Source of the DNA: an uncultured delta proteobacterium
GTDB lineage: Bacteria; Desulfobacterota; Desulfobacteria; Desulfobacterales; JAFDCJ01
Reading direction: 5' to 3'
Assembly (NCBI GenBank): GCA_963769935.1
Contig: CAVYNY010000011.1
Span: forward strand, 288,001 to 352,000
Length of the DNA stretch: 64,000 nucleotides
This document shows positions 37,542 through 45,379 of this stretch, one piece after another (the stretch's first letter is position 1; each line of letters begins with the position of its first letter). The position numbers and the translations under genes were made by a program. The notes beneath the pieces are model-generated. The model made no database searches and was not told where the DNA came from. It was given only the letters and a program-made list of their open reading frames with translations.

Positions 37542-38516
37542 TCAGTCGGCAGTTGCCAGCGGCCGGAATGACCACGTGCCCCTGAGCAGCGGCAGCAAGC
37601 CCGATATCTTAAAATAAATCATGTGCGCGGAAAGCGTCTTGCCTTCCCAGCCCGGCAGGGACCGGTACAGCAGCTGAATTTGCCTCTGCTGGCCCGGACC
37701 CAGCGGTTCGCCGGAAGCCTTGCAGCAAAAATACAACAGCTCCGCCTTGCGACCCCGGTCATCTTCAAGATCGAAAAACCGCTGCGACAAATCGAGCAGG
37801 ATCGGCTGCGCGGTGGTGTTGGTCACGGCGACCCTAATGTCGAACGCGTTGTAGTCATGGGAGACCCGGCCGAAGGCCACACGTTCCAGGGTCACCACAT
37901 CCCCGCGATCCTGCGGGAATGAGGAACCGGGGTCCAGAGAATATTCGGTCCTCTCGATCATGTTCGGCCTGAAAACCAGGATGTCCACGAAATTTGACAA
38001 TGCCTGCTTTTGCATTACCGCTTCCTGGCCGCCGCCGATGAAGCGGCGGACCGGCGTATAAAACAAAACGGCGAGGATGACCAGCACCGCAGCGGTCGCC
38101 GCGATCAGAACGACGCGGAACCGCCGGGGCGAGCGGCCCAGGTGCGCGGCGATCTCCGCCGCCGCATTGCCCTGCGGCTCGAAGATTGTCACCCCTTTGA
38201 GATAGGCAGGAATCGTCTCCATCTCCGTGGGTTCGAGCAGCACCGGCAGGACATGCTTCTTGGGGGATGTCCATTTCTCACGGGCCAGTCTGAGCTCGCT
38301 GAGGCTGTATGCGCCCTGCCGCACGGCATCCGGCGAGATCAGGAACACGAAAAGGTCGGCGTCTGCGATGCGCGTTCGAATCACGGCGTTGAAGTCTTCA
38401 CCGCCGGAGAGCTTGTCTTTGTCGAAGAACACCTCATGGCCTTCTGCCTGCAGCGCCAGAGCGATTTCTTCGGCCTTCGTGCGGTTTTTAGAGGAATAGG
38501 AAAGAAAAATCTTCAT
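37542..38516 (-). CDS. TIR domain protein with transmembrane helix and C-terminal extracytoplasmic domain (copy 2)
   Basis: Ungapped 324-aa paralogue of 18561-19535 (about 42 differences by manual count). Confidence 0.88.
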   Translation of the reverse strand: MKIFLSYSSKNRTKAEEIALALQAEGHEVFFDKDKLSGGEDFNAVIRTRIADADLFVFLISPDAVRQGAYSLSELRLAREKWTSPKKHVLPVLLEPTEMETIPAYLKGVTIFEPQGNAAAEIAAHLGRSPRRFRVVLIAATAAVLVILAVLFYTPVRRFIGGGQEAVMQKQALSNFVDILVFRPNMIERTEYSLDPGSSFPQDRGDVVTLERVAFGRVSHDYNAFDIRVAVTNTTAQPILLDLSQRFFDLEDDRGRKAELLYFCCKASGEPLGPGQQRQIQLLYRSLPGWEGKTLSAHMIYFKISGLLPLLRGTWSFRPLATAD

Positions 38517-38705: not shown

Positions 38706-41700
38706 TTAGTGCTGAATTGTTTCGACCCTGTCCACCGTCAGGGTAATCGCCCCCCAGTCTTCCTCGACCTTGCCGGTGAGCAGGTAGGGCCGTGCACGGT
38801 CGAGCATGTGGCAGAAGCGGTGGTAGGTTTGGGGGAAAAAAGTGGTCTCCACGATGCCGGTTTCATCCTCGAAGGTTAAAAATTCCATGGGGTCGCCGTG
38901 CTTGGTGGTGACCACCTTGCCGGTGATCAGCCAGCCGGCCAGGCGCACGCGCCGGCCGAGATGACGCGGCAGATCGTCGGCTTTGACGGTGCGCAATTTT
39001 TGCCGAGCGGCGGCATACAGCTCCATGGGGTGCCGGTCGCATAAAAAGCCCAGGACGGCAAACTCGCGCCGCAGCCGATCGTGTTCATCTTCCGGCGGCA
39101 GGAGCGGGAGAAGGTCGGCTGGGGTCTGATCGGCAGCGCCGAACAGGGAGCGGGTTTGGGGAATGGATCCGGCTGATCTGGTTTTGAGCCAGCCGGCCAG
39201 CTGCCACATCAGTGCCGCCCGGTTGCCGCCGGGATTCAATCCATCCAGGGCGCCGCCGTGGATCAGCGCCCGGGCCTCGTCTTCCGCGGGCCGCACGCGG
39301 TCTAAAAAATCGCGCACGCTGTGATAAGGGTCCGGCCGGCGGCGGTCGACAAGGCACTGCTGCGTTTCGGCGGCAAGTCCTTTGATGGAGAGCAGCCCCA
39401 CGCGGACGGCATCCTCCCGGCCGGCCCAGCGAATCTCGCTAAGGTTGACGTCGGGCGGCAAAATTTTAAGGCCCAGGCGCCGGGCTTCGGAGACATAGGC
39501 GAAGGTGCTGTAAAAGCCGCCCTGGTTGCTGATGACCGCCGCCATGAATTCAGCCGGATGGTGGAGCTTGAGATAAGCCGCCTGAAAGGAGACCCGGGCA
39601 TAGGAGGCGCTGTGGGGTTTGCAAAAGGAATAGCCGCTGAAACTCATCATCATGTCCCAGATGGCGGCCACTTGACCATCCGATACTCCCTGGCCCCTGG
39701 CCCCGGCGTAAAAGCGGTTTTTAAAATCCTGCAGCTGGTGCTGCCGGTCTTTTTTGGACATGACCTTGCGCAGGGCATCGGCCTCGGCATGGGAAAAGCC
39801 GGCCAGGGCGACGGCAGCCCGGGACACGTCTTCCTGGTAGACCATGATGCCGAAGGTTTCGTTGAGCACCTCGGTCAACAGCGGATGAATCGGGTCCCAC
39901 TGGCCGCCGTGCAGGCGGCGGATGTATTCGCGAATGAAGTCATTGGCGGCCGGACGAATGATGCTGCTGTGGATCACCAGGTGTTCGAAATCCCCGACCT
40001 TTGATTTTTGCTGCAGCAGCCGCATGGCCGGACTTTCAATGTAAAAGCAGCCCATGGTGCGGCCCTGGGCCAATGACTGCTGGGTGGGCAAATCGTCCTC
40101 GGGTTCCCAGTGGAAATCATCAAATGCTTCCCCGTTGGTCCGCAGGTTGCCGACGGCATCCCGAATGACGCCCAGACTGCGGTTGCCCAGCAGATCGATC
40201 TTGACCAGGCCGGCATCTTCGACGGCGTCTTTTTCCCACTGGACGATGGGCACCCCTTTGGGAGCCCGCTGCAGCGGCACGTATTCGTCAATGGGGCGGG
40301 GGGTAAGGACCACGCCGCCGGGGTGGACGGACAGATAGCGGGGCGTGCCGATGATGCACTGGGCATAGGCCAGGATCTCCGGCCAGGGCGGCGGAAATTC
40401 AAGGGCCTTGGATTCCGGGCGCTTTTGCAGGCCGTCGAGCAGCTCGGATTCCGATTCCCCGGCGTGCCAGAAGCGCGGCAGGCGTTTGGTCACCCGTCCG
40501 ATTTCAGCATCCGTCAGACCGTATACTTTGGCCACTTCCCGGATGGCCATGCGCGGTTGAAACAGGACGTGATTGGCCACCATGGCCGCATGTCCCCGGT
40601 GCTGTTCGAGCACGGATTTGAGCACATCATCGCGTTCGTCCCAGGCAAAATCGACATCGATGTCGGGCGGATCCGTGCGGCCGGGATTCAAAAAGCGCTC
40701 GAAATACAGATTGTGTTTGAGGGGGCAGACATTGGTGATGCCCAGGCAGTATGCCACCAGCGAGGCGGCGCCCGAACCGCGGCCGCAGGTGCGCGGGCTG
40801 CGCCTGACAATGTCGCGCACGATCAGAAAATAGGCGGCAAAGCCCATGTCCGTGATGCTGCGCAGCTCATGCTCCAGTCTTTCGACCACCGCTTCAGACA
40901 GCTCCTGTCCGTAGCGCCGGCGGGCACCGGCATAAGCGGCGCGGCGCAGGCGGCGGGCCGGATTCCGGGCCTCTTCGTTTTTAAAGGGCGGCATGACGAT
41001 GCCGAACTGCGGTCCGCTGAACGTCAGACGTTCGGCAATTTCATGGGTGGCCCGCACGGCTTCCGGCAGGATGGCAAACCGGCGCTCATACTCGACGGGC
41101 GACGCCAGCCAGGCGTCGGCCGGGGCCAGATCGTCGGCCGCCAGTCGCGAAAGGCAGGTATTGCGGTCGATGGCCCGCAGCAGGCGGTGGACGGCCGCAT
41201 CCTGCGGCTGCAGGAAGAAACTGCCCGGTGTTGCCGCCAGCGGGATTCCCAGGTGTCTGGCCGTGCGGCACAGGGCCTGGCTGGGGGCCGGTGGCTTGCG
41301 CGGCAGGGCGGCGGCAACCGTCACCCCGGCCGCATGCCAGGTGCGCAGAAGATCGGCGCTTTGGGTCAGGACCACCAGACCGGTCGCATAATTCGGCAGG
41401 ACCGCCTGCAGATCAAACTCCGCATCCATGTGGCGGCGGGTGAGCAAACGGCAGAGGTTGCGGTAGCCGCCCTCGTCTTCCACCAGGCAGACGGCCCGTT
41501 GTTTGCGTATGGGATCGGTGACCTCCGCGCCGACCATCGGCGTCAGGCCTTCCTGTCGGCAGGTCCGCAAAAAAGGCCACAAACCGTAAAGATTGTCGGT
41601 ATCGGTCAATGCCAGACGGTCATAGCCCAGACGTTTGGCCGCCAGGCAAACCTGCTTGACATAGGCCGTGCCCCACATAAGGGAGTAGCTGGATCGGACG

Positions 41701-41714
41701 GTTAATGGAATCAT
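38706..41714 (-). CDS. dnaE2: Error-prone DNA polymerase III alpha subunit (DnaE2-type)
   Basis: Degenerate PHP domain, GRGSGAASLV, FERFLN, catalytic PPDIDVDF and KIDLLG, YSFCKPHS, C-terminal OB fold; lies in an operon with lexA and a Y-family gene. Confidence 0.9.
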   Translation of the reverse strand: MIPLTVRSSYSLMWGTAYVKQVCLAAKRLGYDRLALTDTDNLYGLWPFLRTCRQEGLTPMVGAEVTDPIRKQRAVCLVEDEGGYRNLCRLLTRRHMDAEFDLQAVLPNYATGLVVLTQSADLLRTWHAAGVTVAAALPRKPPAPSQALCRTARHLGIPLAATPGSFFLQPQDAAVHRLLRAIDRNTCLSRLAADDLAPADAWLASPVEYERRFAILPEAVRATHEIAERLTFSGPQFGIVMPPFKNEEARNPARRLRRAAYAGARRRYGQELSEAVVERLEHELRSITDMGFAAYFLIVRDIVRRSPRTCGRGSGAASLVAYCLGITNVCPLKHNLYFERFLNPGRTDPPDIDVDFAWDERDDVLKSVLEQHRGHAAMVANHVLFQPRMAIREVAKVYGLTDAEIGRVTKRLPRFWHAGESESELLDGLQKRPESKALEFPPPWPEILAYAQCIIGTPRYLSVHPGGVVLTPRPIDEYVPLQRAPKGVPIVQWEKDAVEDAGLVKIDLLGNRSLGVIRDAVGNLRTNGEAFDDFHWEPEDDLPTQQSLAQGRTMGCFYIESPAMRLLQQKSKVGDFEHLVIHSSIIRPAANDFIREYIRRLHGGQWDPIHPLLTEVLNETFGIMVYQEDVSRAAVALAGFSHAEADALRKVMSKKDRQHQLQDFKNRFYAGARGQGVSDGQVAAIWDMMMSFSGYSFCKPHSASYARVSFQAAYLKLHHPAEFMAAVISNQGGFYSTFAYVSEARRLGLKILPPDVNLSEIRWAGREDAVRVGLLSIKGLAAETQQCLVDRRRPDPYHSVRDFLDRVRPAEDEARALIHGGALDGLNPGGNRAALMWQLAGWLKTRSAGSIPQTRSLFGAADQTPADLLPLLPPEDEHDRLRREFAVLGFLCDRHPMELYAAARQKLRTVKADDLPRHLGRRVRLAGWLITGKVVTTKHGDPMEFLTFEDETGIVETTFFPQTYHRFCHMLDRARPYLLTGKVEEDWGAITLTVDRVETIQH

Positions 41715-41721
41715 AGTTCAA

Positions 41722-41868
41722 GTTGGCCCGTTGAGCCCGTTGGCCCGTTGAGCCCGTTGGCCCGTTGAGCCCGTTGAGCCCGTTGAGCCCGTTGGCCCGT
41801 TGAGCCCGTTGAGCCCGTTGGCCCGTTGAGCCCGTTGGCCCGTTGAGCCCGTTGAGCCCGTTGAGCCG
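41722..41868 (+). repeat. Tandem array of 17 units GTTGGCCC / GTTGAGCCC
   Basis: Read directly: A B A B A B B B A B B A B A B B B' (A = 8 bp, B = 9 bp). Confidence 0.97.
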
Positions 41869-41869
41869 G

Positions 41870-42154
41870 CTAACTGGTTTCGTGTTTTTTTAAATACCGA
41901 ATTAAGCCGTCAATTATCTTACGAACTTTTGCGCAGTGATCATAGGTGTTTTGAAATTCAGTCTCTGAAATATAGTTTTGATCTAAGGCGACGTACAAGC
42001 AATTCTGCACCTCGGAACAAGATCGTCTCGAATAGGTTAAAAATCGGATGAACTCTTTGTTCGACTTCGAATCAAATCCTTCGCAGATGTTATTCATTAC
42101 GGAAATAGCGGCGCCGGTTATTTGCCCAGATAGTCTAAAATCATTCGAGAAAGC
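41870..42154 (-). pseudogene. Four-helix-bundle protein (23S rRNA IVP/TIGR02436-like), 5'-truncated
   Basis: AFSNDFRLSGQITGAAISVMNNICEGF...EFIRFLTYSRRSCSEVQNCLYVALDQNYI; the usual first helix is missing. Confidence 0.82.
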
Positions 42155-42193
42155 GGGCCAACCGGCAACGGGCCAACCGGCGAACCAGATTCC

Positions 42194-43372
42194 TTATGCC
42201 GCTAAAGATCGACCGAATCGTACGGCCTCGTTGCCGAACCGCTGTCGGATGCGGTCGATGACGCTGATGAGATTGTCGCGTTTTTCGTTTTGCTTTTGCT
42301 CGACGGCAAACAGCTCCAGCTGGGCCGGCGGAAATGTCAGCCGGTCGCAGATCAGACGCACATGCCGGATGCGGATCCGCCGGGTCCAGGCCAGGCGCAG
42401 GGTGCGCCGGGCCAGTTCGAAAAGTATGAGATCGTTGGCGGTGGCCGGTTTGGCTGCCAGCTGGCGGGCACAGCGCATGCCGTCCGAATAGTCAAGGATG
42501 ACGGCAACCCGGCGGGCGGCGTGCCGCCGCCGGCGCAGCCTGTCACCGGCCTGTTCGACCAGGCCGTACAGGGTGCTTTCCAGAGTGGATTTGTCATTGG
42601 TGTCATTACCGAATTCATGGTCGACCATTATCTTCGGCGGTTTTTGCCCGGCCGGCAGGACGGGAGAAGGATCAATGCCGCGGGCGGCTTCGTATAGAAG
42701 CAGGGCGCGGGCGCCGAAGGGAATCTGCAGCTGCTCCAGACTCAGGGCGGTCAGATGCGACACCCGGCTGAGATTAAATTCCTGCAGCCGCAGCAGATCG
42801 TCGCGTTCGATGCCCGGGACCAGGCCGATCGGCAGCGGCGCCAGAAGCGCTTCTTCTTCGCCGGCACCGACGATGTACTCCCCGTCGGGCTTTACCAGGC
42901 GGGTGGCCACCTTGGCCGTCAGTTTGTTGGGGGCCACCGACCAGATGGGATCCAGGCCGAGATCTTCTTTAACCTGCCGGCGCAACCGCCAGGCGACATC
43001 AATGGGGGGGCCGAAAAGGCGGGCGGTGCCGGTGACATCCAGAAACAGGTGCCCGTCGACTTCCCCGGTTTCAATGAGCGGTGAATACGGCAGCGTCTGC
43101 TTGAGCAGGGTCCGCATGGCGTGCTCGTAGCGGTCCGGGTGGGGCGGCAGGATCCGGACGTCCCGGCACAGGCGCACGGCCCGGCGCAGCGGCATGCCCT
43201 TGCGGATGCCGGTTCGATAGGCTTCTTCGCTCATATCGTAAACGGCGGCCCGGGCCGCTCCCTCGGGGGCGATGATCACCGGCCGCGCTTTGAGCCGGCA
43301 ATCCACGGCCCGCTCCACCGCCACGGCAAAGTCGGCGACATTCAAATGGATAATTGATCGCTCCATGGACAA
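42194..43372 (-). CDS. Catalytically degenerate Y-family polymerase (ImuB-like)
   Basis: HLNVADF in place of HvDmDaF and EVDGHLFLD in place of SIDEayLD; PNKLTAKVA; clamp motif QLELF; C-terminal IDRIRQRFG. Confidence 0.85.
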   Translation of the reverse strand: MSMERSIIHLNVADFAVAVERAVDCRLKARPVIIAPEGAARAAVYDMSEEAYRTGIRKGMPLRRAVRLCRDVRILPPHPDRYEHAMRTLLKQTLPYSPLIETGEVDGHLFLDVTGTARLFGPPIDVAWRLRRQVKEDLGLDPIWSVAPNKLTAKVATRLVKPDGEYIVGAGEEEALLAPLPIGLVPGIERDDLLRLQEFNLSRVSHLTALSLEQLQIPFGARALLLYEAARGIDPSPVLPAGQKPPKIMVDHEFGNDTNDKSTLESTLYGLVEQAGDRLRRRRHAARRVAVILDYSDGMRCARQLAAKPATANDLILFELARRTLRLAWTRRIRIRHVRLICDRLTFPPAQLELFAVEQKQNEKRDNLISVIDRIRQRFGNEAVRFGRSLAA

Positions 43373-43403
43373 TTCTCTAAGTCATCAAGTCAAGCAGAAT
43401 AAG

Positions 43404-43554
43404 GAATGGATTCTATTTTAATTTTTTAATTGGACAGGATTTACAGGATTGTCTGGATTCTGTTTTGGCATTCCCGGTTTCCGGAGGAAACCGTAAAAAA
43501 ATCCTGCTCATCCTGTTGATCCTGTCGGACAAAAAAAATAAAAAGAATCCATTC
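43404..43554. repeat. MITE-like palindromic element (family C)
   Basis: Perfect 11-bp terminal inverted repeat GAATGGATTCT/AGAATCCATTC with internal ACAGGAT/ATCCTG repeats; partial copies near 18472 and 29028. Confidence 0.7.
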
Positions 43555-44401
43555 ATCTTTCCTCTTCAGACACTTCCATTAGTCCTCTTTCTGTCAGCAA
43601 GTTAATCAGCTGCACCGCATTCCTGGGCGCCTGGGCGCGGACGTGGTTGTTGAAGAAAATGAGGCCGCGGTTTGCGTGCCGGGCCATTTTCGTGATCCGG
43701 CCATCCGCCCACTCCCGCAGCTCAGCATCCCCGTAGTCATAGTCGAATTGCTGCTGCATGTTGCCCGAGCGCCAGCCCTTGGCGTTGCGGCCGTGAAAGC
43801 GGATGTAGAAAAGATCGGGGTTGGTGACGATATCGAGCGGAGGGAAAAGTCCCGGTAAATTCGGTTCATCCACTGCTACCAAGGTAGTGCGGCGGCGCTC
43901 CAGTTCGGCAAAGACCCGGTCCGTGGCCCAGGAGGCGTGACGAAACTCCACCGCCAGGGGCAAACCGTCCAACTCGTCCAGCAGGGCGGCCAGATATTGA
44001 CGGTTTTGAGGGGCGCGCCCAAAGGAGGGAGGGAATTGCAGCAAAACGGCCGCCAGTTTTCGGGCCTGCAAAAGCGGAGCGATGCCGTCCCGGTACTGGG
44101 CGGCCTGTCCCCGCCATTGACCGGGATCGATTTCGTGGGTTAATGTGCGGGTCAGTTTGGCGGCAAAGCGAAAACCGGCCGGCGCCTGTTGCTGCATTCG
44201 TTCGAGCGCACTCGCTTTGGGCATTTGATACCAGGTGAAGTTCAACTCGGTGACTGGAAAATTCTGGGCGTAACAGGACAGCATGTTGCCCGATTTTGTC
44301 CCCGGTGGATAAAACCCGGCATCGGTCCATTCCGCATACGAATAGCCGCTCGTGCCGACCCAAAGTTTACAACCACGTATTGGTTCTTTTTTGTTGTCCA
44401 T
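43553..44401 (-). CDS. DUF72 (YecE-like TIM-barrel) protein
   Basis: VGTSGYSY, ELN.TWY, LLQFPPSF, VEFRH.SW, YIRFHGRN and FFNNH..AQAP.NA motifs. Confidence 0.92.
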   Translation of the reverse strand: MDNKKEPIRGCKLWVGTSGYSYAEWTDAGFYPPGTKSGNMLSCYAQNFPVTELNFTWYQMPKASALERMQQQAPAGFRFAAKLTRTLTHEIDPGQWRGQAAQYRDGIAPLLQARKLAAVLLQFPPSFGRAPQNRQYLAALLDELDGLPLAVEFRHASWATDRVFAELERRRTTLVAVDEPNLPGLFPPLDIVTNPDLFYIRFHGRNAKGWRSGNMQQQFDYDYGDAELREWADGRITKMARHANRGLIFFNNHVRAQAPRNAVQLINLLTERGLMEVSEEER

Positions 44402-44436
44402 TGACGTGCTTCAATTTCCGAGATGAACACATAAAA

Positions 44437-44520
44437 AGCTGATAGCTCATAGTCCCGCCGCGGCGAGACTGGTAGTCGAATGATCAATTCCTTTTTGCTA
44501 TGAGCCATGAGCTATGAGCT
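44437..44520. repeat. Inverted heptamer arrays (AGCTCAT / ATGAGCT)
   Basis: AGCTGATAGCTCATAG ... CTATGAGCCATGAGCTATGAGCT. Confidence 0.6.
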
Positions 44521-45151
44521 ATTTTATCCCCTCCGGTCCGCGCTGGATGCCGATGACCTTGCCCTGGATCAATACTTCGCTGAAGCCGTAGCGCATGGGG
44601 TTATATGCGGCATTTTCCGGACGCAGTTCGATGTATTTTTTGCGCAGAAAAAACCGTTTGACGGTGGCTTCCTCTTCGTTGATAAGGGCCACCACAATTT
44701 CACCGTTCCGGGCGTACTGCCGGGGTTCGCAAATCGCCAGATCACCGGTCAGGATCCCGGCATCCTTCATTGAATCGCCCTTGATCTGCAACGCAAAGAG
44801 GTTCTGGCCGCGATAGACGGCGGCGTCCAGCACCGTGCTGCCGTCCCATTCCGTCTGGGCGTACATCGGTAACCCGGCCATAACGCGACCGATGATGGGG
44901 ATCTCCCGCCAACGCTGGGAGGCCGAGGTCTCGCGGGCTCGGTTCAAAAGATAGACGGTACGGCTGTAGCGTCCCTCCCGTTTCAGGTAGCCTTTCTCTT
45001 CCAGCGCCCGAATGATTTGAGCGATGGCGGCGTGGCTGACCCCGATATCTGCAGCCGCCTGGCGCAGGCTGGGAGCCTGTCCGCTGTTTGCGATTTCATG
45101 CTGCAGATAATCTAAAACATGCTTTTGTCTCTCGGTCAGGGCTGATTGCAT
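44519..45151 (-). CDS. lexA: SOS repressor LexA
   Basis: LTERQ...PSLRQ...LEEKGYL wHTH, Ala-Gly cleavage site (GRVMAGLP), catalytic GDSM and TVKR; GGAGG RBS. Confidence 0.95.
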   Translation of the reverse strand: MQSALTERQKHVLDYLQHEIANSGQAPSLRQAAADIGVSHAAIAQIIRALEEKGYLKREGRYSRTVYLLNRARETSASQRWREIPIIGRVMAGLPMYAQTEWDGSTVLDAAVYRGQNLFALQIKGDSMKDAGILTGDLAICEPRQYARNGEIVVALINEEEATVKRFFLRKKYIELRPENAAYNPMRYGFSEVLIQGKVIGIQRGPEGIK

Positions 45152-45287: not shown

Positions 45288-45333
45288 AATATAAACGCTC
45301 AATATGTAAATGTCAATGTAAAATTTAATGTAA
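45288..45333 (-). promoter_or_regulatory. Sigma70 promoter of the lexA cassette with overlapping TTACAT direct repeats
   Basis: TTGACA (45311-45316), 17 nt, TATATT (45288-45293) on the minus strand; ATGTAA on the plus strand at 45304, 45316 and 45328. Confidence 0.75.
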
Positions 45334-45379
45334 GGTTTGTATGGGGATGTAAAGGCTTGTGGGTTTGGGGATATCGGGG

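Follow-up and report, generated by a model that had tools for sequence, protein, structure and literature searches.

Gene content of the locus

Within the 64,000-nucleotide window (the whole stretch of DNA that was analysed), four co-oriented open reading frames were located on the minus strand: lexA, a DUF72 gene, polY and dnaE (Table 1). This arrangement, claimed in the earlier note, was borne out by the open reading frame coordinates and by Pfam and NCBIfam, which concurred. The genes were separated by 117, 180 and 479 bp, indicating a loose operon. In the 479-bp gap lay a truncated gene for a four-helix bundle, along with tandem repeats; the earlier note mentions neither. The fragment is a passenger outside the system, because just 2 of the 80 related loci had a comparable match. 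A comparison with Rfam gave no match. Metatranscriptome contigs from two runs spanned the cassette and were rejected as expression evidence, as they covered the flanks too and might have DNA as their source; a 42186–44491 joint in the metatranscriptome was set aside because one of its sides had just 33 bases, inside the repeat-rich spacer.

Table 1. Features of the cassette and its promoter region (window positions).
Feature	Position	Strand	Characteristics
dnaE2 (DnaE2B type)	38706..41714	-	1002 aa; intact catalytic aspartates; degenerate PHP site; SRDF tail absent
Tandem 8/9-bp repeats around four-helix-bundle fragment	41726..41870		Within the 479-bp gap
Truncated four-helix-bundle (23S rRNA IVP family) fragment	41870..42133	-	PF05635 positions 31-105, E 2.7e-23
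Inactive Y-family polymerase (gbDinB2-like)	42194..43372	-	392 aa; clamp motif 351-355, RecA-NT motif about 373-387
DUF72 TIM-barrel protein	43553..44401	-	282 aa; PF01904; family pocket residues intact; predicted docking on PolY
lexA	44519..45151	-	210 aa; TIGR00498 above cut-off; Ala-Gly site and Ser/Lys dyad
Sigma-70-type promoter TTGACA-17-TATATT (11 of 12)	45288..45316	-	Consensus match
Candidate LexA operator: direct repeat, TTTACATT half-site, 12-bp period	45303..45334	-	Core 45303-45322, third half-site to 45334; overlaps -35 box

Mutasome type

In an alignment with E. coli Pol IV, the catalytic residues D8 and E104 corresponded to N11 and H108 in PolY, leaving the enzyme inactive. Among 120 PolYs of the clade, the asparagine was present in 118 and the histidine in all 120. 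The clamp motif QLELF was conserved as well (Q351 in 118/120, F355 in 115/120), and a RecA-NT-type helix motif was found in 114. The incomplete catalytic acidic set, the clamp motif and the C-terminal IDRIRQRFG helix, all read earlier from the single sequence, thus held across the clade. The tails beyond the RecA-NT motif were 9–59 aa long in the 120 proteins and therefore hold no ImuB-C domain. By eye, the PolY signature was that of ABW66046.1 and AGF78394.1, Desulfobacterales rows among the gbDinB2-like proteins in Table S2 of PMC6511836, a table that lists PolYs of Desulfococcus oleovorans and Desulfocapsa with the same signature.

SRDF is the name of a C-terminal motif of DnaE2. Such an end was found in none of 70 DnaEs, while the catalytic aspartates D351, D353 and D507 were kept in all 70, both as proposed before. 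The suggestion that QTRSLF is a possible clamp motif of DnaE2 fared worse: Q-x1-3-L[FL] occurred in just 13/70 and L[FL] in 64/70. In a quick DnaE tree (31 rows, midpoint root, two long branches, group labels assigned by ourselves), dnaE2 joined the polymerase of the Bacteroidota dinB-dnaE pair, and both DnaE1 and the DnaE2s linked to imuA fell elsewhere.

Neither imuA nor imuB was found in the 96.7%-complete genome with PF00154, NF033429, PF03846 and two ImuA-like queries, of which NF033429 was insensitive (above cut-off in 0 of 14 control genomes); the absence of imuA had been anticipated. DUF6504, which we take to be ImuB-C, was not found in the genome either. Among 80 order-level loci, dnaE followed polY in 76 (gap of at most 30 bp in 31/77) and none contained a RecA-like gene match in the cassette. 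Membership in the ImuA-ImuB-DnaE2A type was rejected, given the lack of imuA in the cassette and of an ImuB-C domain fused to PolY. The cassette resembles that mutasome in combining a dead Y-family scaffold with a DnaE2 under LexA, and differs from it in lacking ImuA, the ImuB-C domain and the SRDF tail, and in having a DnaE2 from another branch. The DnaE2X type, which has an inactive PolY and a standalone ImuB-C, was rejected too: the cassette has no ImuB-C gene, its gap holding the PF05635 fragment, and the genome has no DUF6504.

The cassette instead matches the DnaE2B-iPolY-RecA module in its inactive PolY, which carries both the clamp and the RecA-NT motif, the lack of ImuB-C, the DnaE2 neighbour, the lexA that is often present and the lack of a detected imuA. 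Such lexA-led combinations of DnaE2B and an inactive gbDinB2-like PolY, without ImuA and thought to use RecA, have already been described (PMC6511836; PMC12926913). The earlier proposal that the cassette regulates itself and pairs PolY with RecA, without ImuA, is therefore supported and already in print, and RecA likely takes over from ImuA in cassettes of this type. DUF72 is missing from the main texts of both papers and from the 2019 supplement; the 2026 supplement, beyond that scope, may list neighbours. With the core module known, what appears to be new here is the predicted docking of DUF72 and a putative direct-repeat operator.

LexA and a candidate operator

LexA contained a winged-helix and an S24 domain, the cleavage site and the catalytic dyad, and no other full-length LexA was found in the genome. 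A second lexA-like match (C12) was rejected as LexA, its S24 domain being on an unrelated N-terminus. Promoter consensus matches were no more frequent than in shuffles (2 found versus 2.7 expected); conservation of the −35 hexamer gives added support. The earlier note did not mention the conserved promoter element at 45303–45334.

The 20-mer of the direct repeat was present within 2 mismatches in 58 of 69 lexA upstream regions, 37 of them exact. Matches were obtained in 72 of 201 genomes, usually at the cassette only, versus 2 matches for the reversed control. The repeat stayed with polY-dnaE2 where the cassette is split (G092, G042) and differed where another LexA leads it (L175, L184). On these patterns, the 20-bp direct repeat that overlaps the −35 box is a candidate for a new operator of LexA. 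At recA, the two dinB genes and dnaE1 of the genome, no strong site was found; judging from a reference title, recA reportedly lacks a site likewise in the G. sulfurreducens lexA operons. Our literature search found no prior publication of the direct-repeat operator, and the available parts of PMC6511836 and PMC12926913 gave no description of an operator for the DnaE2B-iPolY-RecA module. The EMSA-validated LexA operator of Balneolaeota (PMC7739468) is also a TACA-unit direct repeat at the lexA promoter, whereas its spacing and phylum are different, and its regulon includes recA, which is without a site here. Should it be real, the candidate site would define how the SOS response is controlled in Desulfobacterales.

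Distribution and fold of DUF72

DUF72 directly preceded polY in 70 of the 80 order-level loci, confirming the conservation of gene order, and the gap between them was at most 30 bp in 41/71. Orthologues of the two occurred together in 81 genomes, out of 89 with polY and 85 with DUF72; the DUF72 family was present in 9/14 control genomes. In-frame DUF72-PolY fusions were absent from 71 loci, and the 3 of 5 long database matches that carry both domains were rejected as fusions, all being singletons with sequence apparently off frame.

The earlier note had DUF72 fill the imuA slot as a putative lesion-processing enzyme. The reading that DUF72 stands in for ImuA and is needed to activate the PolY scaffold would fit its occupation of imuA's usual position, its predicted contact with PolY and the lack of a detected imuA. 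However, ImuA has a RecA fold and binds through the RecA-NT motif, which most clade PolYs keep, whereas DUF72 is a TIM barrel with a predicted site on the palm. Cassettes also persist without it: DUF72 was missing from 25 clade loci, lost repeatedly in 8–12 tree changes, and from 27/27 more distant ImuA-less loci. The family further adjoins other mutasome types: other DUF72 lineages lie beside PolB2 operons, with enrichment near polB2 (PMC11791011), and, in 4 Planctomycetota loci, behind an ImuB-C-like gene, an active PolY and dnaE. We consider replacement of ImuA very improbable. The same losses, absences and associations are what a generic SOS passenger would show, and DUF72 could be a co-regulated repair enzyme in the LexA operon that does not bind the mutasome, its predicted complex being a false pass. 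We regard this as possible rather than probable; the short DUF72-polY gaps speak against it.

An alignment-based model of DUF72 (pLDDT 90), preferred over a discarded single-sequence model (pLDDT 53), was a TIM barrel that superimposed on 1vpq with Z 31.7 and rmsd 2.1 over 252 aligned residues. The fold and the equivalents of the pocket residues N44, Y48, K72, Q114, R145 and R191 were conserved with the DUF72/YecE family (Tm1631, 1vpq; EF0366, 1vpy/1ztv). For this family, a DNA-repair role has been proposed from modelling only (PMC3828134), and no protein partner was reported in the literature found. On the active face of DUF72 lies the tyrosine for which a role as a DNA wedge has been proposed. 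The DUF72 proteins of the clade showed no conserved clamp-type motif at the C-terminus. UVDE was the top non-DUF72 match in Foldseek (TM 0.56). In VIA-align comparisons, EndoIV (Z 13.3, rmsd 3.7, 224 aligned; Z 11.7, rmsd 4.0, 232 aligned) and UVDE (Z 12.2, rmsd 4.1, 221 aligned) tied with sugar isomerases and ranked below MbnB, so the fold does not point to endonucleases in particular.

Predicted docking of DUF72 on PolY

Complex prediction placed DUF72 on the palm of PolY with a score of 0.75, versus 0.02 for the best of three controls. The docking mark is reached by 116/157 solved and 2/215 mismatched pairs, rates that are only approximate with our own alignments. Docking runs shared at least 83% of contacts, with partner pLDDT of at least 89. 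The predicted contacts involve PolY residues 115–128 and 165–175 and the active-face loops of the DUF72 barrel, at a distance from the RecA motif. The predictor is unlikely to have reproduced a similar complex from the PDB, because the titles of the DUF72 entries found there (1vpq, 1vpy, 1ztv) name the protein by itself. No prior publication of the docking was found in the literature search. By alignment, I124 and A170 of the predicted site correspond to T120 and P166 of Pol IV, and the site adjoins F172/L176; according to the available part of PMC4564189, this Pol IV patch contacts UmuD and Pol III. The parallel with E. coli Pol IV, UmuD and RecA lies in the patch, whereas Pol IV is active and UmuD, rather than being a TIM barrel, forms a LexA-like dimer. 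The controlled prediction and the coincidence with a known partner patch both argue against DUF72 being a passenger, while the burial of its invariant Y58 in the complex model favours that alternative. On balance, the modelling suggests that DUF72 probably binds PolY, by a narrow judgement.

W128 of PolY lies in the lowest-error predicted contact. It ranked first of 269 positions for consensus loss, with the consensus in 1/7 nested DUF72-less loci versus 83/105 DUF72-bearing ones. The 80% conservation threshold of the first interface test, from which 7 duplicate and 3 ambiguous loci were removed, had left out W128 (79%); the threshold-free test was thus post hoc, and a pre-stated replication was therefore done. 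Of 13 new loci without DUF72 (4 from one genus, 1 sister to an earlier locus), 7 retained the tryptophan, versus 11 of 12 new loci from DUF72-bearing genomes (Fisher p 0.046), or 9 of 10 without controls L281 and L283, in which DUF72 is elsewhere in the genome and not in the cassette. With phylogeny taken into account, about 4 of 8 independent pairs changed in the predicted direction and 0.2 in the opposite one (sign test, median p 0.125). In total, W128 was replaced in 22 of the 105 loci with DUF72, and 12 of the 25 loci without it still had the tryptophan. The trend did not replicate at I167, Y166 and E4, and relaxation of the whole interface after DUF72 loss was not significant (permutation p 0.053; rank tests p 0.45 and 0.23). 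DUF72 interface residues were more clade-specific than the remainder (p 0.001) and no better conserved within the clade (0.74 versus 0.72). Relaxation of W128 after DUF72 loss, without phylogenetic significance, thus gives modest sequence support for the docking and counts against a passenger. Covariation between the proteins gave no clear signal over 100 pairs (mean z 0.5), as a passenger would predict; an MI-APC analysis was set aside as dominated by phylogeny.

G115, G121, D125 and G171 of PolY were near-invariant with or without DUF72. Together with the match of I124 to Pol IV T120, this would fit a patch that really serves another partner, DnaE2 or Pol III, for which DUF72 competes as an inhibitor or timing device. 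We find this improbable, as the published model of ImuB-DnaE2 uses the thumb and ImuB-C instead (PMC12926913).

Proposed mechanism

We lean slightly towards a LexA-headed, likely damage-induced mutasome cassette in which DnaE2 synthesizes DNA, PolY is the scaffold and DUF72 is an optional subunit. LexA would likely repress its own promoter by binding the direct repeat over the −35 box, whose conservation was observed. Cleavage of LexA driven by RecA* is established SOS logic and would here release the four genes. DnaE2 likely carries out error-prone synthesis, and published models suggest that the dead PolY is a scaffold bridging the sliding clamp, RecA (the likely ImuA stand-in) and DnaE2B. 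DUF72 would join PolY through the active-face loops of its barrel. The weakest step concerns its role there, for which we can only tentatively suggest, as a rather doubtful idea, an enzyme with its catalytic site intact that is probably directed at DNA and sits on the scaffold, tuning the mutasome without being required, much as UmuD tunes Pol IV. Among roles for DUF72 we rate this the likeliest because the predicted contact face includes the proposed DNA-wedging tyrosine.

DUF72 may, at not quite even chances, be a true mutasome subunit at a UmuD-type patch. The LexA-controlled DUF72-iPolY-RecA-DnaE2B assembly would then be a twelfth type of multimeric error-prone polymerase with an undescribed direct-repeat SOS box, and PolY the first physical partner of DUF72. 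The described accessories of bacterial translesion polymerases are RecA/ImuA, UmuD, YqjX, ImuB-C and SRAP; a subunit with an enzyme fold, if true, would be a new kind. If binding fails, the cassette is an ordinary member of the described module with a conserved passenger. DUF72 is widespread and has solved structures, and a named partner, contact residues and lineages that lost it make its role testable. The main target of LexA here appears to be its own mutagenesis cassette, possibly together with an IS91-type transposase.

The cassette core and its host genome

The four co-oriented ORFs of the earlier note were present as described, and profiles identified them as LexA, DUF72, a Y-family protein (PolY) and a Pol III alpha homologue. 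The genome carrying the window (contig handle G000:C11) is 8.0 Mb in size, 96.7% complete and 5.4% contaminated; its named relatives indicate Desulfobacterales. Its remainder encoded a single recA, a single DnaE1 and two DinBs whose catalytic motifs are intact. The cassette DUF72 and LexA were the only DUF72 and the only full LexA found. No imuA was found in the genome, nor imuB-C, with four profiles (one of them insensitive) and five protein queries.

Positions of the cassette and associated features in the window
Feature	Position	Remarks
TIR-domain gene	37542-38516	after dnaE2, co-oriented; predicted membrane segment
dnaE2	38706-41714	minus strand
Truncated four-helix-bundle gene (PF05635)	41726-42193	between polY and dnaE2; 8/9-bp tandem repeats, inverted arms
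polY	42194-43372	minus strand
Spacer	43392-43566	inverted repeats at its bounds
DUF72 gene	43553-44401	minus strand
Spacer	44433-44524	inverted repeats at its bounds
lexA	44519-45151	minus strand
Candidate LexA operator, 20-bp element	45303-45322 (third half-site to 45334)	171 bp before lexA; TTTACATT twice at a 12-bp period, includes TTGACA

PolY was catalytically inactive as judged by alignment, with N11 and H108 replacing D8 and E104 of E. coli Pol IV. Among 120 orthologues (the clade), position 11 was N in 118; both the clamp and the RecA-NT motif were kept, and an ImuB-C domain was absent. Since D14 (117/120), G107 and H108 (both 120/120) were near-invariant and not drifting, the dead active site may have been repurposed. 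All three catalytic aspartates of DnaE2 were retained in 70/70 sequences; of its putative clamp motif mainly LF was kept (n = 70).

DnaE2B together with an inactive gbDinB2-like PolY is reported in genomes without imuA, with RecA as the presumed partner of the RecA-NT motif (PMC6511836; PMC12926913, in the sections cited here), and AlphaFold support was added in 2026 (PMC12926913). The PolYs of Desulfococcus oleovorans and Desulfocapsa sulfexigens, placed in the gbDinB2-like group in Table S2 of PMC6511836, carried the signature of the window PolY in a comparison by eye covering 17 of the 36 table rows. In a quick tree, subject to long-branch caveats, the window DnaE grouped with other iPolY-linked DnaEs beside a dinB-dnaE polymerase of Bacteroidota; DnaE1 and two DnaE2s linked to imuA fell elsewhere. 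The cassette core is a known module, and the idea that RecA activates the PolY scaffold coincides with a hypothesis already in print.

The operon is interrupted between polY and dnaE2 by the truncated PF05635 gene. Matches of the TIR gene to anti-phage TIR families were weak and under the cut-off.

Distribution of the DUF72 gene

From 200 genomes of the order, 80 of 89 orthologous polY loci were retrieved. DUF72 lay directly upstream of polY in 70, bearing out the conserved adjacency; lexA was upstream in 72, dnaE lay downstream of polY in 76, and a RecA-like gene was found in none of the 80. The ten loci without DUF72 comprised seven with lexA-polY, one at a contig edge and two split cassettes. 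Genome-wide, 81/89 polY genomes had a DUF72 orthologue and 81/85 DUF72 genomes had polY. Doubling the sample yielded 13 further genomes without DUF72, and the 25 DUF72-less clade loci require 8–12 changes on the tree. DUF72 is therefore conserved in the cassette but optional.

Of 40 phylum loci outside the order (four being active DinBs), four cassettes contained DUF72, and five loci of one family lacked it. It was also absent from 27/27 distant inactive-PolY loci, three of which had <600 bp upstream. Close DUF72 homologues had polY downstream in 46/49 cases (six of the 49 duplicate earlier loci); the 31 distant homologues included four Planctomycetota with PolY and dnaE, one with a polY-like match nearby and 26 with neither. 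In these Planctomycetota cassettes (loci L203, L204, L207 and L222), active PolY and dnaE lie directly upstream of DUF72, and an ImuB-C-like gene lies upstream in at least two, scored in one; they represent a second association of DUF72 with a DnaE2 module. DUF72 is further recorded near polB2 (PMC11791011, in the part cited here). DUF72 thus turns up next to several types of mutasome and is not an ImuA substitute, and cassettes persist without it in the clade and in the distant loci. The earlier note thus stands in its observations and in its ImuA-less cassette with RecA as partner, but not in DUF72 filling the imuA slot. No publication linking DUF72 to the DnaE2B-iPolY module, or giving the 20-bp operator, was found in a literature search whose reach left out most subscription papers.

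Several loci departed from the common arrangement. One Desulfocapsaceae genome (L200) had lexA-DUF72-dnaE, with polY missing between the last two; one family (L115-L119) retained polY-dnaE2 but lacked both lexA and DUF72 in its vicinity; and F355 or F379, in the clamp and RecA-NT motifs of PolY, was altered in several DUF72-less loci. A mobilizable Desulfosarcina ovata plasmid (L235; NZ_AP021877.1, 59962-65737) carried the whole lexA-DUF72-polY-dnaE cassette, with a traA relaxase near. The cassette of an archaeon-labelled contig (L161) was nested among Desulfobacterales sequences, and the label is likely a binning error.

Fold of DUF72 and predicted docking to PolY

The DUF72 model (pLDDT 90) resembled DUF72 structures (Z about 31), with UVDE as the next Foldseek match. 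Because endonucleases and sugar isomerases were level in VIA-align, the modelled fold names no activity. Across 100 clade members the pocket residues varied little or not at all, including those with DNA binding proposed, by modelling only, in the part of PMC3828134 cited here. Four distant DUF72 proteins (L225, L232, L233, L223) had clamp-motif-like tails (Q-x-x-LF); no conserved C-terminal tail of this kind was seen in the cassette clade.

The complex prediction for PolY and DUF72 passed (0.75 vs 0.02 for the best control), at a mark reached by 116/157 solved and 2/215 mismatched pairs, counts that are only rough with our own alignments. At least 83% of contacts were common to the runs, with partner pLDDT of at least 89. 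The predicted interface joins PolY residues 4, 6, 115-128 and 165-175 to active-face loops of DUF72, including Y58 (Tm1631 Y48), and leaves the RecA-NT and clamp motifs outside. In the alignment, PolY I124 corresponds to T120 of Pol IV and A170 to P166, residues placed in a single patch that is linked to contacts with Pol III and UmuD (PMC4564189, as far as cited here). This prediction supports binding, short of demonstration.

Sequence evidence on docking was mixed. W128 of PolY ranked first of 269 positions in consensus loss over seven nested DUF72 losses (1/7 vs 83/105), which amount to some six events (binomial p = 0.002; 0.006 including the out-of-order family), and a replication fixed beforehand went in the same direction (7/13 vs 11/12, p = 0.046). 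DUF72 contact residues exceeded other residues in clade specificity (p = 0.001). Independent pairs gave p = 0.125 for W128, relaxation at three other PolY contact residues failed to replicate, relaxation of the whole interface after DUF72 loss was not significant, and PolY-DUF72 covariation gave no clear signal. On balance, we lean slightly towards DUF72 binding PolY.

A candidate LexA operator

The 20-bp element occurred within two mismatches in 58/69 lexA upstream regions. A pattern search found it in 72/201 genomes (78 sites; a single site in 66 genomes), and the reversed-pattern control gave two matches. Where the cassette is split, in two cases, the element stands ahead of polY-dnaE2. Desulfobulbales cassettes had a AATGTACATT-type variant, and two cassettes of Myxococcota, whose LexA differs (34–38% identity), had a different motif, a palindrome. 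Neither recA nor either of the two dinB genes in the window's genome had the element. We infer that LexA binds it; the nearest published motif found was the EMSA-validated direct repeat of Balneolaeota LexA (PMC7739468), and further LexA motifs are listed in PMC8565304, both as far as cited here.

In two genomes (L249, G128:C194:9048; L262, G000:C22:400966, in the window's own genome), IS91-family transposase genes also had a candidate operator (31 and 24 of 38 bits) 55-70 bp upstream, which suggests SOS-linked transposition. Second operator-like sites preceded an elongation-factor-G-like gene (L243, G137:C10:13411) and a PIN-like gene (L242, G136:C18:34830). Distant cassettes (L129-L139, L144; L125, L126, L131, L137, L146, L150-L152) had a TTGAC box followed by direct repeats of other kinds, seen by eye as TTACAGT at a 12-bp or TTCACC at an 11-bp period; repeats of the TTCACC type are also found before polY genes that have no lexA next to them.
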